Shown: positions 48,314 to 54,455 of the stretch, piece after piece | Layout of the letters: every line of letters starts with the position of its first letter | Numbering within the stretch: position 1 is the first letter of the stretch | Assembly (NCBI RefSeq): GCF_030384885.1 | Contig: NZ_CP128613.1 | DNA length: 64,000 nucleotides | DNA from: Escherichia coli | GTDB lineage: Bacteria; Pseudomonadota; Gammaproteobacteria; Enterobacterales; Enterobacteriaceae | Strand: one strand, 5' to 3' | The notes under the pieces: generated by a model | Database searches by the model: none | What the model saw: only the letters and a program-made list of their open reading frames with translations | What the model was told of the DNA's origin: nothing | Made by a program: the position numbers and the translations under genes

Positions 48314-49924
48314 TTACATTTGATCAAACGAAAGACGCCGACGAGCACGGGATGCAGGCTTTACGACCGCCTGAGCCATCGCCTCACCAATTTCTGCACA
48401 TGCCGTAAGTCCCTGTACGAATGGCCGGTCGTGCATCAACCAGGGCAACGCGCCGAACGCTACGCGCCCACGAATTTCTTCGGGTTGCTGTAGCGTATAA
48501 TCTTCGCCAACATCCGGGATTTCATCGCCTGTTTTCTGTAATTGTTCGCGTAGCCCTGGGAAAGGAATGTCTTTCACTTTGAGCGGACGCTGCCCGCGGG
48601 CATCAATAAAAACGTCAAACGAGTAGCTATTGTTTTCCGTTTTCAGGACGGTGCGCGACTCATTAATTTCCATTTCGTAGTCTTCACCGAGGGCGAGAAT
48701 ATGAATGATTCCCGCTTCACGTAAGGCCAGTAGTCGACGAATAGACTCTGAAGGGATTGCCGCATAATTATCGATGAAAACCCGGGCAAGGCCTTTACTG
48801 AACCGTTTATGGTCGTGTTCATTCAGATGAGGAACAATTTCCTGTACGGCTTCATGCAGGCGCAGAATGACATAACGCCAGGGAACAGTATGTTTTTCTC
48901 GTTTATTGCGTTCGACTTCCTGGAGATTTTTTTCTGCCCAGTCGAATGGGTCGCGTTGTTTGCGCTCGGCAAACCAGGCTTGAGCAAAGGAATCGACATT
49001 CAGGCTCTCTAAGGCTATGCGTTGGCTCCAGTCTAGATCAGCAAATTTGATTTCCTCTACTATTAATTCGAATACTCGATCCAAAAGGCCCTCTTCGCCT
49101 TTTTGAATCTCCGCATTTAATGCCTGTTCAGTGACGATGTGTAAGGGCTCGTAGGGAATAGGGCAATAGAAATCGGCTTCCGGTAAAATACCCGTGCGTG
49201 ACATTAGCGTAATACTTAGCTTTTCACTTGTGTTATTGAGTTGATAAATAACATGTTGTTTATCATCTTCAATAAATGAACCATGTTGAATAGCCACTGC
49301 CATTGCCGCATCCAGTCCGCTCAAGGATGTTCCCATAATACCCACGTTACACGCATCAACCTTTGCTTCCATCAGGCCTGACCACGGGCTGGGAAAATAC
49401 GTTCTGGTTGCTTCTTCTTCATCAGGCCAGACGTGACCCGTCGCGATCACCGCTAAATCAAACGTCTCGATGGGTAAATCCTGATTTGTAGCGAGCATGA
49501 CGCCAGCATTTATAATTTTCAGATCGGTAACCTGGCATGATTCATAAACAGCCACTGCAAATTTTTGCTGTCGTGCCTGGTCTACTAATCGTAAAAATTG
49601 ATCGCGGAAATATTCGCCCAGCAGAATTCGCGGTAAAAACTGGCGATCGTGCAAGGTTTCTTTTTTAACGCCATAACGCTGGAGATGGCTGGCTTCTTGC
49701 TTTTGTAGCCATTCGAGATATGTACAAGAAATCGGCGGTATTTCAATACTGGCAATATTTGCCAGCATCAGTTTTGAGTTTTCCTCATCACTGTATGGCA
49801 TCCCGACACCGGCTTCGTCAGCCTGCTCGAAGATAGAAATAGAAAGTGGAGTTTGTTGCTGTAGAAGCGAGAATAAGGTGTAGATCCCCGTAGGCCCGGC
49901 ACCCACAATAGCAATTTTTTTCAT
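48314..49924 (-). CDS. ydhS: FAD/NAD(P)-binding oxidoreductase-like protein
   Basis: 536-aa ORF with N-terminal Rossmann motif (IAIVGAGPTGIYT). Confidence 0.9.
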   Translation of the reverse strand: MKKIAIVGAGPTGIYTLFSLLQQQTPLSISIFEQADEAGVGMPYSDEENSKLMLANIASIEIPPISCTYLEWLQKQEASHLQRYGVKKETLHDRQFLPRILLGEYFRDQFLRLVDQARQQKFAVAVYESCQVTDLKIINAGVMLATNQDLPIETFDLAVIATGHVWPDEEEATRTYFPSPWSGLMEAKVDACNVGIMGTSLSGLDAAMAVAIQHGSFIEDDKQHVIYQLNNTSEKLSITLMSRTGILPEADFYCPIPYEPLHIVTEQALNAEIQKGEEGLLDRVFELIVEEIKFADLDWSQRIALESLNVDSFAQAWFAERKQRDPFDWAEKNLQEVERNKREKHTVPWRYVILRLHEAVQEIVPHLNEHDHKRFSKGLARVFIDNYAAIPSESIRRLLALREAGIIHILALGEDYEMEINESRTVLKTENNSYSFDVFIDARGQRPLKVKDIPFPGLREQLQKTGDEIPDVGEDYTLQQPEEIRGRVAFGALPWLMHDRPFVQGLTACAEIGEAMAQAVVKPASRARRRLSFDQM

Positions 49925-50049: not shown

Positions 50050-50355
50050 TCAGGCGAGTTTTGCCTGATTGATTTGACTCAGTGGCTCATTGACATCGAA
50101 AACTTTGGCGACAACTTCCTCAACGCCGAGATTTTTCAGTCGGGCAGTATGTTTTTCCAGATAGGCAAGGGCGCTTTTTTCATCAGTGAAAAGGTAGATC
50201 CCACCGGCTTCGTGGTTCTTTTCACTTTCTGTCCATACCTTCCACAGAAAACCAGGTTCCTGATTAATCGACTCAGCAAGCGGTTTAAGCTGCTCAGCCA
50301 TTGCGTCGCCAAATGGGCCATTAAAAGCAAAATGAAGTTGTAACAAAGTTGCCAT
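50050..50355 (-). CDS. ydhR: Small Dabb/antibiotic-biosynthesis-monooxygenase-like protein
   Basis: 101-aa ORF; terminator hairpin downstream (aagggcg-gttag-cgccctt). Confidence 0.85.
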
Positions 50356-50462
50356 AGCGATTCTCCTTCTGATAACGCATACGAAGACAGTGTAAATCTT
50401 TTAACGTATTGGATACAGAGAAGAAACAGAGGGAAAAAGGAGAAGACCAGATTAAGAAAATC

Positions 50463-50539
50463 TGGTGCGTCCGAGTGGACTCGAACCACCGACCCCCACC
50501 ATGTCAAGGTGGTGCTCTAACCAACTGAGCTACGGACGC
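50463..50539 (-). tRNA. valW: tRNA-Val (anticodon GAC)
   Basis: minus strand GCGTCCGTAGCTCAGTTGGTTAGAGCACCACCTTGACATGGTGGGGGTCGGTGGTTCGAGTCCACTCGGACGCACCA: 77 nt, cloverleaf-compatible, encoded CCA; copy assignment valV vs valW inferred from gene order. Confidence 0.95.
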
Positions 50540-50543
50540 AGGA

Positions 50544-50620
50544 TGGTGCGTTCAATTGGACTCGAACCAACGACCCCCACCATGTCAAGGTGGTGCTCTA
50601 ACCAACTGAGCTATGAACGC
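50544..50620 (-). tRNA. valV: tRNA-Val (anticodon GAC)
   Basis: minus strand GCGTTCATAGCTCAGTTGGTTAGAGCACCACCTTGACATGGTGGGGGTCGTTGGTTCGAGTCCAATTGAACGCACCA: 77 nt, differs from its neighbour in acceptor and T stems; 4-nt spacer. Confidence 0.95.
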
Positions 50621-50928
50621 AACGTTGTAGGTGACAACGGGGACGAATATTAGCGGCAGAGTGGGAAGGTGGCAAGAGGCAAAACGTAATTTTCTGCGGT
50701 ATTTCGACCGTTTGCAGAGCTTTTAAGCAAATTGGCTATATTTTGTTGATTTGCAAGGGCGATTTTTATTCAGGATCGCATTTACATCTGACACAACCCA
50801 ATAATCTGTGTATCAGAGTTTAAACAGAGTTGTTTGCCACCATCTCAAAATCTGTCGTGGATAAATCCTCCGTAGCCTTTACACTTATGTAGCAATAAAG
50901 GCACACAGATGCAGCAAAGGAATAAATC

Positions 50929-52185
50929 ATGGGATCTGATGCGAAAAACTTGATGAGCGACGGGAACGTGCAAATTGTTAAGACCGGCGAGGTCATTGGC
51001 GCGACGCAACTTACTGAAGGTGAGTTAATTGTTGAAGCTGGCGCAAGAGCCGAAAATACCGTGGTCACGGGGGCCGGTTGGTTGAAAGTGGCAACCGGTG
51101 GGATCGCCAAATGCACACAGTACGGCAACAATGGCACGCTATCGGTCAGTGACGGTGCCATTGCCACAGATATTGTTCAGTCAGAGGGAGGCGCAATTAG
51201 TCTCTCTACGCTCGCTACGGTTAATGGCCGCCATCCAGAAGGTAAATTTAGCGTTGATCAGGGTTATGCCTGCGGTTTGTTGCTGGAAAATGGCGGTAAC
51301 CTGCGTGTACTGGAAGGCCATCGCGCGGAAAAAATCATTCTCGATCAAGAGGGCGGCCTGTTGGTCAATGGGACAACCTCAGTGGTCGTGGTAGATGAAG
51401 GTGGTGAATTGTTGGTGTATCCAGGTGGGGAAGCCAGCAATTGTGAGATTAATCAGGGCGGCGTTTTTATGCTGGCGGGGAAAGCCAGTGATACATTGCT
51501 TGCTGGTGGCACCATGAATAATCTCGGTGGTGAAGACTCTAACACTATTGTTGAGAATGGAGCCATTTATCGTCTGGGGACGGATGGCCTTCAGCTCTAT
51601 AGTTCCGGTAAGACGCAAAACCTGTCCGTTAATGTGGGTGGTCGGGCTGAAGTGCATGCTGGTACGCTGGAAAACGCGGTAATACAAGGTGGGACAGTGA
51701 TCTTGTTGTCACCCACCAGCGCGGACGAAAATTTTGTCGTAGAGGAAGATCGCGCACCGGTTGAACTGACCGGGAGTGTTGCATTACTGGACGGCGCTTC
51801 AATGATTATTGGCTATGGCGCAGATCTGCAACAATCATCGATTACTGTACAGCAGGGCGGTGTGTTGATTTTCGATGGCAGTACGGTAAAAGGTGACAGT
51901 GTCACTTTCAATATTGGTAACATCAATCTGAATGGTGGAAAACTGTGGCTGATCACTGATGCGGCAACGCATGTGCAACTGAAAGTGAAACACCTGCGCG
52001 GAGAGGGAGCGATTTGCCTGCAAACCAGTGCGAAAGAGATTTCACCTGACTTCATCAATGTTAAAGGGGATGTTAACGGTGATATACACGTTGAGATAAC
52101 CGATGCCAGTCGGCAAACTTTGTGTAACGCACTGAAATTACAGCCAGACGAAGACGGGATTGGCGCAACGCTCCAGCCTGCGTAA
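50929..52185 (+). CDS. ydhQ: Autotransporter-passenger-like beta-helix repeat protein lacking a translocator barrel
   Basis: 418-aa Gly/Asn/Val-rich ORF with imperfect repeats typical of AIDA-type passenger beta-helices; no C-terminal beta-barrel-length region. Confidence 0.87.
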   Translation: MGSDAKNLMSDGNVQIVKTGEVIGATQLTEGELIVEAGARAENTVVTGAGWLKVATGGIAKCTQYGNNGTLSVSDGAIATDIVQSEGGAISLSTLATVNGRHPEGKFSVDQGYACGLLLENGGNLRVLEGHRAEKIILDQEGGLLVNGTTSVVVVDEGGELLVYPGGEASNCEINQGGVFMLAGKASDTLLAGGTMNNLGGEDSNTIVENGAIYRLGTDGLQLYSSGKTQNLSVNVGGRAEVHAGTLENAVIQGGTVILLSPTSADENFVVEEDRAPVELTGSVALLDGASMIIGYGADLQQSSITVQQGGVLIFDGSTVKGDSVTFNIGNINLNGGKLWLITDAATHVQLKVKHLRGEGAICLQTSAKEISPDFINVKGDVNGDIHVEITDASRQTLCNALKLQPDEDGIGATLQPA

Positions 52186-52225
52186 AAACACAGGCGCAAC
52201 CCGTGAAGGTTGCGCCTTATCTTTA

Positions 52226-53620
<1,395 letters not shown>

Positions 53621-53813: not shown

Positions 53814-54455
53814 ATGTTTACGGGGATTGTACAGGGCACCGCAAAACTGGTGTCGATTGACGAGAAACCAAATTTTCGCACGCATGTGGTGGAGTTACCC
53901 GACCACATGCTGGACGGTCTGGAAACCGGTGCGTCCGTGGCGCATAACGGTTGCTGCCTGACCGTGACGGAGATTAACGGCAACCATGTCAGTTTTGACC
54001 TGATGAAAGAAACGTTACGTATTACCAATCTTGGCGATTTAAACGTGGGGGATTGGGTAAATGTTGAGCGGGCGGCGAAATTTAGCGATGAAATTGGCGG
54101 ACACTTAATGTCAGGTCATATTATGACCACCGCTGAAGTGGCTAAAATATTAACCTCGGAAAATAATCGCCAGATCTGGTTTAAAGTCCAGGATAGTCAG
54201 CTGATGAAATATATCCTGTACAAAGGATTTATTGGCATCGACGGTATTAGCCTGACCGTCGGCGAAGTCACGCCAACGCGTTTTTGCGTCCATTTAATTC
54301 CGGAAACACTGGAACGCACGACTCTTGGGAAGAAAAAACTCGGCGCACGCGTCAATATTGAGATCGATCCACAAACTCAGGCAGTGGTAGATACGGTAGA
54401 ACGTGTGCTGGCGGCACGAGAAAATGCCATGAATCAACCAGGTACAGAAGCCTGA
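53814..54455 (+). CDS. ribC: Riboflavin synthase
   Basis: 213-aa [33 protein letters not shown]... with the internal duplication typical of riboflavin synthase; AGGAG SD. Confidence 0.95.

Follow-up and report, generated by a model that had tools for sequence, protein, structure and literature searches.

What becomes of an autotransporter passenger when neither a leader nor a translocator accompanies it? This question is raised by ydhQ, a 418-codon gene within a 64,000-nt stretch of Escherichia coli DNA (contig NZ_CP128613.1; the whole stretch is referred to here as the window), for which an earlier note had offered three options: a remnant of a degraded autotransporter, a two-partner-secreted protein or an intracellular beta-helix protein. 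The domain architecture of YdhQ, the parts that it lacks, its predicted fold, its conservation and its synteny are all established here, and the best explanation, which is probably correct, is that YdhQ is a domesticated, cytoplasmic, acidic beta-helix derived from the passenger of a self-associating autotransporter (SAAT), functional and dispensable in the laboratory. By this account, an internal piece of approximately 1.5 kb from an AIDA-I/Ag43-type autotransporter gene would have been fixed between mdtK and the valVW promoter in the ancestor of the Escherichia lineage, after its split from Salmonella and Enterobacter. The captured piece would comprise repeat rungs and the first two-thirds of the autochaperone domain, now expressed as a gene that has a ribosome-binding site, a start codon, a C-terminal tail of 13 residues and a terminator of its own. 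Its product would fold autonomously in the cytoplasm into a right-handed beta-helix of roughly 20 rungs, with an isoelectric point (pI) of 4.45, and would act there in a job that is presumably non-essential under laboratory conditions.

The gene itself belongs to the YdhQ orthologous group (NF007409/PRK09945), with the NCBIfam equivalog NF007409 matched over its entire length (positions 1–418 of 418) at 926.1 bits, against a cut-off of 830, and its product is 100 % identical to RefSeq WP_000534247.1, annotated as ydhQ. The 418-aa open reading frame (ORF) reported by the earlier note coincides exactly with that in the ORF list, and the peptide quoted there is present at aa 165–203. Its description of the protein as rich in Gly, Asn and Val stands for the first two residues, as both Gly (14.8 %) and Asn (6.2 %) are the highest amongst the 30 window ORFs of at least 300 aa (means of 7.9 and 3.8 %, respectively), but is weak for Val (9.1 %), which lies only about one standard deviation over the mean. 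The imperfect repeats it described are readily recovered, with self-similarity peaking at offsets of 17–19, 36 and 54 residues (z of 3–4.4 versus shuffled sequences), a periodicity of approximately 18 residues, and with five stretches matching the AIDA repeat of Pfam (PF16168; E 1.4e-27). The strand-loop-strand repeat profile TIGR04415 is also matched, at 39.7 bits (cut-off 30).

The C-terminal portion of YdhQ reveals where the passenger was severed. Six barrel-bearing relatives, P0082 (771 aa), P0109, P0125, P0132, P0139 and P0142, are collinear with YdhQ over aa 7–396, at 29 % identity, running through the Pertactin motif GDF..V.G...G.F.V...D. In these relatives the Pertactin profile is matched at positions 2–120 (3–120 in one case), and is followed by a linker of 45–130 aa and then by the PF03797 barrel. 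They thus continue for some 40 Pertactin positions beyond YdhQ, in which Pfam recovers no complete autochaperone/Pertactin domain at the passenger C-terminus and no AC_1 domain (PF18883). Homology to the barrel-bearing relatives stops at approximately aa 405, where LKLQ is aligned with SLQI, and from there YdhQ has a tail of its own, which forms two short strands in the AlphaFold2 model. The collinearity with these relatives, together with the cut Pertactin domain, indicates that YdhQ corresponds to the last 400 or so residues of an AIDA/Ag43-type passenger, severed within the autochaperone. A second candidate for such a truncated protein, P0052 (422 aa, with AIDA repeats and Pertactin positions 1–87 of 121), was rejected, as it lies on a contig of 1.5 kb and is a piece, broken by a frameshift, of a longer, P0039-related autotransporter of E. 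coli.

Structural prediction agrees with this assignment. The AlphaFold2 model of YdhQ, generated from an alignment of 19 sequences, is all-beta over residues 7–417, with a mean predicted local distance difference test score (pLDDT) of 90.3 and a predicted template-modelling score of 0.88; its only weak spots are residues 1–6 and an acidic loop at 264–274, the sequence of which is conserved amongst orthologues despite its low pLDDT. A Foldseek comparison with the PDB returns structures of Ag43 (7koh, 7ko9, 7kob and 4kh3) and TibA (4q1q) as top matches, with E-values of 1e-8 to 1e-11, whilst phmmer against the same database identifies the Ag43 family at E 1.6e-25, aligning YdhQ aa 26–214 to Ag43 residues of approximately 202–393. 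YdhQ is hence predicted to contain a beta-helical passenger domain, much as the earlier note had proposed, and the two outcomes that would have contradicted that proposal, a complete translocator and an unrelated fold, did not materialise.

With regard to export, the earlier note had seen no obvious signal peptide at the annotated start, and this observation is borne out. An AAGGA Shine–Dalgarno sequence is located 7 nt 5′ of the ATG, and three in-frame stops occur in the 60 nt upstream, at −2 (a TAA), −12 and −14 codons, which precludes any N-terminal extension of the protein. The N-terminus has no hydrophobic segment (maximum Kyte–Doolittle value of 0.71 in a 15-residue window), and neither upstream translation nor hydropathy reveals the Sec signal peptide of a type Va autotransporter. 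The translocator, for which the ORF had been judged to end too early, is likewise missing: there is no Pfam match to the PF03797 beta-barrel even at E ≤ 1, and YdhQ ends inside the Pertactin domain. Remnants of the lost parts were sought by tblastn across the window, using as queries 120 aa from the start and 450 aa from the end of 14 related autotransporters, of which those checked by Pfam carry the barrel. All matches with E < 0.06 lie in frame within the ORF, extending to 52131 at most, and those outside it are noise (E ≥ 0.06). Neither the ydhQ-valV spacer (50621–50928), where the earlier note had suggested looking for traces of a barrel decayed in situ, nor the sequence downstream of ydhQ yields a remnant match. 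Downstream, moreover, the 40 nt separating the convergent stops of ydhQ and mdtK are occupied by a terminator, such that no space is left for coding remnants. Lacking both a Sec leader and a 12-strand barrel, YdhQ cannot use the type V pathway, and these absences, read from the sequence, would argue against its surface display.

How such a fragment came to lie here is suggested by the corresponding locus in sister genera. As the earlier note had stated, ydhQ sits beside the tandem tRNA-Val genes; there are two of these, with GAC anticodons, on the minus strand and 308 nt from the ydhQ start. In Salmonella and Enterobacter, mdtK is separated from the same two tRNA-Val genes by approximately 150 nt, with no gene between. 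Some 95 nt upstream of valV, containing its promoter region, are common to Escherichia, Salmonella and Enterobacter; similarity ends at about 50718 and returns at the mdtK stop codon, with the terminator hairpin beyond it differing in sequence. The short spacer in these genera indicates that the ydhQ segment of approximately 1.47 kb is an insertion of the Escherichia lineage into an ancestral mdtK-valV spacer. As there are no flanking remnants, the insertion of a partial gene fragment would be a simpler explanation than the in situ erosion of a full autotransporter, and appears favoured over it. In an exhaustive HMMER search of 1.84 billion representative sequences, nothing outside the YdhQ cluster exceeds 38 % identity, and long autotransporters are next in rank. 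In keeping with an old acquisition, ydhQ has much the same GC content (50.5 %) as the window (49.6 %). A strict sigma-70 scan reported no promoter for ydhQ. The coordinates of these and other features of the locus are collected in Table 1.

Table 1. Features of ydhQ and its surroundings, in window coordinates
Feature	Position	Strand	Basis and remarks
ydhQ coding sequence	50929–52185	+	418 aa plus stop; "AIDA repeat-containing protein"; ORF list, NF007409, RefSeq
AIDA/strand-loop-strand repeat region (beta-helix rungs)	50971–51708, approximate (about aa 15–260)	+	Pfam, TIGR04415, alignment to Ag43 ~200–400, period of ~18 aa
Most conserved block (aa 66–140), homologous to the Ag43 ATVTG..LExGGxLxVLxGH segment	51124–51348	+	Orthologue alignment, regional dN/dS, Ag43 alignment
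Acidic loop SADENFVVEED (aa 264–274)	51718–51750	+	pLDDT < 50; sole internal low-confidence segment of the model
Truncated Pertactin-like/autochaperone domain (aa 330–403)	51916–52137	+	PF03212 profile positions 2–78 of 121
YdhQ-specific 13-residue C-terminal tail, PDEDGIGATLQPA	52144–52182	+	Replaces autochaperone end, linker and barrel
Shine–Dalgarno AAGGA (50917–50921) and in-frame TAA (50923–50925)	50917–50925	+	Sequence; upstream translation; invariant in orthologue alignment
Weak candidate ydhQ promoter, TGGATA, 16 nt, TACACT	50858–50885	+	Inferred by eye; genus-conserved; 8/12 consensus
Bidirectional terminator hairpin	52192–52217	.	Terminator-like sites on both strands; fills the ydhQ/mdtK gap
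Escherichia-lineage segment of ~1.47 kb (ydhQ and ~210 nt upstream)	50718–52190, approximate	.	Comparison with Salmonella and Enterobacter spacers
valVW promoter-like site, TTGCCA, 17 nt, TAATAT	50646–50675	-	Promoter scan; conserved with Salmonella and Enterobacter
Tandem tRNA-Val(GAC) genes valV/valW	50463–50539, 50544–50620	-	ARAGORN, Rfam tRNA; divergent from ydhQ

The gene has since been retained by selection. Orthologues of 418 aa are present in E. albertii, E. marmotae, an E. ruysiae-like lineage, E. sp. E4742 and other lineages, all of which share the gene order ydhR, valVW, ydhQ, mdtK. When the window gene is compared with those of six Escherichia lineages by the Nei–Gojobori method, the ratio of nonsynonymous to synonymous substitution rates (dN/dS) is 0.11–0.15 at dS values of 0.10–1.01, and each of the seven sequences has 418 codons, with no indels. 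All segments of the gene are constrained: dN/dS is lowest for aa 26–200 (0.07–0.09), and is 0.12 for the tail (aa 393–418). Beyond these, a YdhQ orthologue of 70 % identity and 419 aa, i.e. with one extra codon, adjoins mdtK in an outgroup lineage, the mdtK of which is 82–83 % identical to those of E. coli, E. albertii and E. marmotae (which are mutually 87–89 % identical). Of 5426 complete E. coli genomes, 5419 retain at least 80 % of the ydhQ region; one of the remaining seven without a near-full-length region is strain AR_0013, in which ydhQ is split by ISEcp1, an insertion sequence (IS) of the IS1380 family (L019, 4530–7447). A scan of a genome collection using only two strict peptide patterns recovered five Escherichia genomes, and is no proof of absence in E. 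fergusonii. On the evidence of its low dN/dS, constant length, constrained tail and near-universal presence in E. coli, YdhQ is not a decaying remnant, and is under purifying selection across the Escherichia lineages sampled. The gene-wide positive selection on ydhQ put forward in PMC9110714 receives no support from the pairwise dN/dS of approximately 0.12. Constraint is strongest in the Ag43-like block at aa 66–140, which is nearly invariant in eight orthologues of the Escherichia lineage and gives the best alignment to Ag43 (69.7 bits); this block would be the likeliest interaction surface.

A cytoplasmic location is suggested by the composition of the protein as well as by published work. 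Secreted autotransporter passengers are known to avoid cysteines. YdhQ harbours five (1.2 %), of which C115, C363 and C399 are conserved, whilst seven barrel-bearing relatives possess 0–2 each, a range that holds for the collinear P0082-type proteins, and its Cys fraction is reached by only 4 % of 94 long relatives. This excess over secreted relatives counts in favour of cytoplasmic adaptation. The protein was negative by SignalP 6.0, and a leaderless YdhQ-pFAST fusion was fluorescent, cytoplasmic and folded, with no surface agarase activity (PMC13101318). Native YdhQ has been quantified in whole-cell proteomes (PMC6561319), and deletion of its gene serves as a neutral control (PMC6962156; bioRxiv 10.1101/2023.03.28.534373). 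As to its regulation, one study counts the ydhQ 5′ untranslated region amongst the direct targets of CsrA (PMC5389547). GGA motifs lie at 50859–50861, 50919–50921 and 50932–50934, and such motifs overlap both the Shine–Dalgarno sequence and the start codon. Control of ydhQ translation by CsrA is probable. A structured 5′ untranslated region presenting these motifs was considered but is unsupported, its fold being less stable than those of shuffled sequences (z +1.33).

Comparison with known systems clarifies what YdhQ does and does not share with the SAAT proteins. The closest is Ag43 (Flu/Cah), the alpha-domain of which is the best PDB match by sequence as well as by structure (Foldseek E of 1e-10 to 1e-11); both proteins are three-stranded right-handed beta-helices containing the motif ...NG..G.F.V..G.A...LLENGG.L.VL.GH.A. 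Ag43, however, possesses a leader, complete autochaperone, linker and 12-strand barrel, and is displayed on the surface, whereas YdhQ is without these export parts and scores just 86 bits with the auto_Ag43 profile (cut-off 1200). A likeness to the glycosylated SAAT adhesins AIDA-I and TibA resides in the AIDA repeats and in the TIGR04415 repeat, which is the target motif of O-heptosyltransferases, and residues 55–350 of TibA match the YdhQ model with a TM-score of 0.59 normalised to the target. Unlike these adhesins, YdhQ has no leader, no barrel and no adjacent heptosyltransferase gene, and reaches only 53 bits with the auto_AIDA-I profile (cut-off 1200). Homology to the passenger repeats of SAAT proteins (Ag43, AIDA-I and TibA) is thus found in both sequence and structure (Foldseek E of 5.6e-11). 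Three of the four type Va features tested (leader, barrel and complete autochaperone) are nevertheless absent, and YdhQ should not be filed as a type Va autotransporter. The 'leaderless autotransporter YdhQ' of PMC13101318, published in 2026, is the same protein; its missing signal peptide and cytoplasmic folding are recorded there, but it is classed as an autotransporter anchor and its absent beta-barrel is never noted, whilst the domain analysis presented here demonstrates that the translocator is missing.

Several observations weigh against a cytoplasmic, selected YdhQ and have to be set beside those in its favour. The dN/dS of ydhQ is some 8-fold higher than that of the neighbouring housekeeping genes (mdtK, cfa and ribC, at approximately 0.015–0.04; ydhS at 0.08–0.15 in the same comparison), and denotes a moderate constraint. 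The cytoplasmic location was that of an over-expressed fusion rather than of native YdhQ, and the addition of an exogenous leader to YdhQ raised apparent surface display over that obtained with no anchor (PMC13101318), a gain that a barrel-less cytoplasmic protein does not predict. The hints at its function are weak. In high-throughput work YdhQ co-purified with EF-Tu (PMC2672614) and was listed amongst new RNA-binding proteins, the latter being odd for a protein whose net charge is −26. Two further hints point to the envelope or the cell exterior: the tie to early adhesion given in the passage of PMC9110714 that cites Roux 2005, and the placing of YDHQ under COG3468, which recurs as a cluster in proteomes of extracellular vesicles. 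One more specific, and quite unlikely, suggestion is that a secreted-adhesin passenger has been exapted to a new cytoplasmic role, held throughout the history of the Escherichia lineage. The candidate role is that of a CsrA-controlled acidic beta-helical scaffold, either one on the translation/RNA machinery, in view of the EF-Tu and RNA-binding results, or one titrating factors that act on autotransporter passengers before export.

The adhesion, vesicle and display results underlie the main rival reading, by which YdhQ would reach the surface or medium by a non-classical route, and would there promote adhesion or modulate aggregation of the Ag43 type. Such a route might be provided by vesicles, by lysis in biofilms, by passage in trans via BAM/TAM or the barrel of another autotransporter, or by the flagellar type III apparatus, which would export the disordered N-terminus. 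This would suit its local identity of approximately 40 % to the self-association region of Ag43, and a genomic SELEX peak of FlhDC in the ydhQ-valV spacer. It is, however, unlikely, as YdhQ is without both leader and barrel, no partner gene lies nearby, and its conserved, widely spaced cysteines are atypical of translocated passengers. Vesicle proteomes contain many cytoplasmic contaminants. The leaderless fusion remained in the cytoplasm without surface agarase activity (PMC13101318), and the FlhDC site assigned to 'ydhQ/valV' (PMC9962212) falls at 50668–50710, within the spacer portion conserved with Salmonella and Enterobacter, and hence in the ancestral valVW promoter segment rather than in the ydhQ insert.

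That YdhQ might instead be a non-functional relic of an autotransporter, in which disabling mutations have yet to accumulate, is very improbable. In its favour, both export modules are absent, no laboratory phenotype has been reported for the deletion, which serves as a neutral locus, dN/dS exceeds that of the neighbours, and an occasional allele is disrupted by an IS, as with ISEcp1 in AR_0013. A relic would not be expected, however, to display a dN/dS of 0.11–0.15, to have gained no indel or stop in 418 codons at dS values of up to approximately 1, with a deeper orthologue of 419 codons, to conserve a non-homologous C-terminal tail, to be kept in nearly every complete E. coli genome and to be detectably expressed as protein. 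The remnant option of the earlier note is therefore divided: the ancestry it implied is upheld by the collinear C-terminal 400 aa and the cut autochaperone, but the decay is contradicted by the dN/dS, by the absence of indels and by sister genera in which the site is empty. As to the two-partner secretion (TPS) option, a TpsA exoprotein, or equally a mis-called start with a leader upstream, can be given almost no credence. A beta-helical, repeat-rich architecture is common to TpsA proteins, and this is the sole point in favour. Against it, there is no TPS (haemagglutination activity) domain amongst the Pfam hits of YdhQ at E ≤ 1, no leader, the upstream stops bar an extension, no Omp85/TpsB gene is found within the flanking 10 kb (the neighbours being tRNA-Val, ydhR, ydhS, mdtK and ribC), and the proteins to which YdhQ is homologous are type Va passengers, whose autochaperone domain forms part of the match. 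The intracellular beta-helix is thus the best supported of the three options, given the lack of leader and barrel, purifying selection, elevated cysteine content, and a leaderless fusion that is cytoplasmic and folded.

Some further observations concern the surroundings of ydhQ. Bases 50400–52400 are 100 % identical to E. coli strain 2013C-4282, and 96–97 % identical to most other complete genomes. Identity of at least 99 % over this stretch is found in just 14 of the 5425 matching E. coli genomes, the remainder displaying 95–99 %; from these counts the window derives from an uncommon, 2013C-4282-like lineage of E. coli. A defence or phage origin for YdhQ was also considered and dropped: no PADLOC-DB defence family is matched at E ≤ 0.01, and PHROGs returned only phrog_21473 (unknown function), an AIDA-like match across aa 5–161. 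At 50339–50501 on the plus strand, a full-length match to RF02194, 'bacterial antisense RNA HPnc0260', scores 112 bits (gathering score 59), and overlaps in antisense orientation both the region upstream of ydhR and the 3′ portion of the distal tRNA-Val gene. In Salmonella enterica (L017, 8514–15362) the same tRNA-Val pair is directly followed by a type III secretion cluster comprising the families Bac_export_1/2/3, FliP, SepQ, SsaO, SsaP, T3SS ATPase and FHIPEP, which we take to be Salmonella pathogenicity island 2; in Enterobacter, ydhS occupies this position. On such comparisons, the 3′ side of valVW is a hotspot of gene flux. Within the genus, E. albertii (L002, 4251–5432) has ydhT beside ydhR, with no ydhS, and E. 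marmotae (L004, 1–5426) contains pykF, ynhH, a DUF2767 gene, ydhS and ydhR, without the ydhV-ydhT oxidoreductase cluster. Neighbouring genes also vary in length: ydhS (48314–49924, minus strand) encodes 536 aa in the window versus 534 aa in other lineages, and ribC (53814–54455, plus strand) encodes 213 aa in E. coli and E. albertii, and 205–208 aa in E. marmotae, E4742 and the ruysiae-like lineage.

Databases and the 2026 paper already record the ydhQ gene, as well as its AIDA repeats and the lack of a leader. What is added here is the exact truncation point, the finding that no trace of the missing parts is left, an origin by insertion into the spacer between mdtK and valV, and a genus-wide purifying selection accompanied by a gain of cysteines. 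The gene belongs to the core genome of E. coli; autotransporter or adhesin is its routine label, it has served as a display anchor, and the literature counts it amongst biofilm or antibiotic-resistance genes. That label is corrected here: both of the export modules that define an autotransporter are absent, the fragment was inserted beside valVW and has nonetheless been kept by purifying selection, and results of 'surface display' with YdhQ should not be read as autotransport. The value of the finding lies in annotation hygiene, and in one testable puzzle, namely the intracellular role of a leaderless, barrel-less passenger, rather than in any new system. Should the exaptation to a cytoplasmic role prove true, it would constitute a documented case of a type V passenger that has switched both compartment and function.

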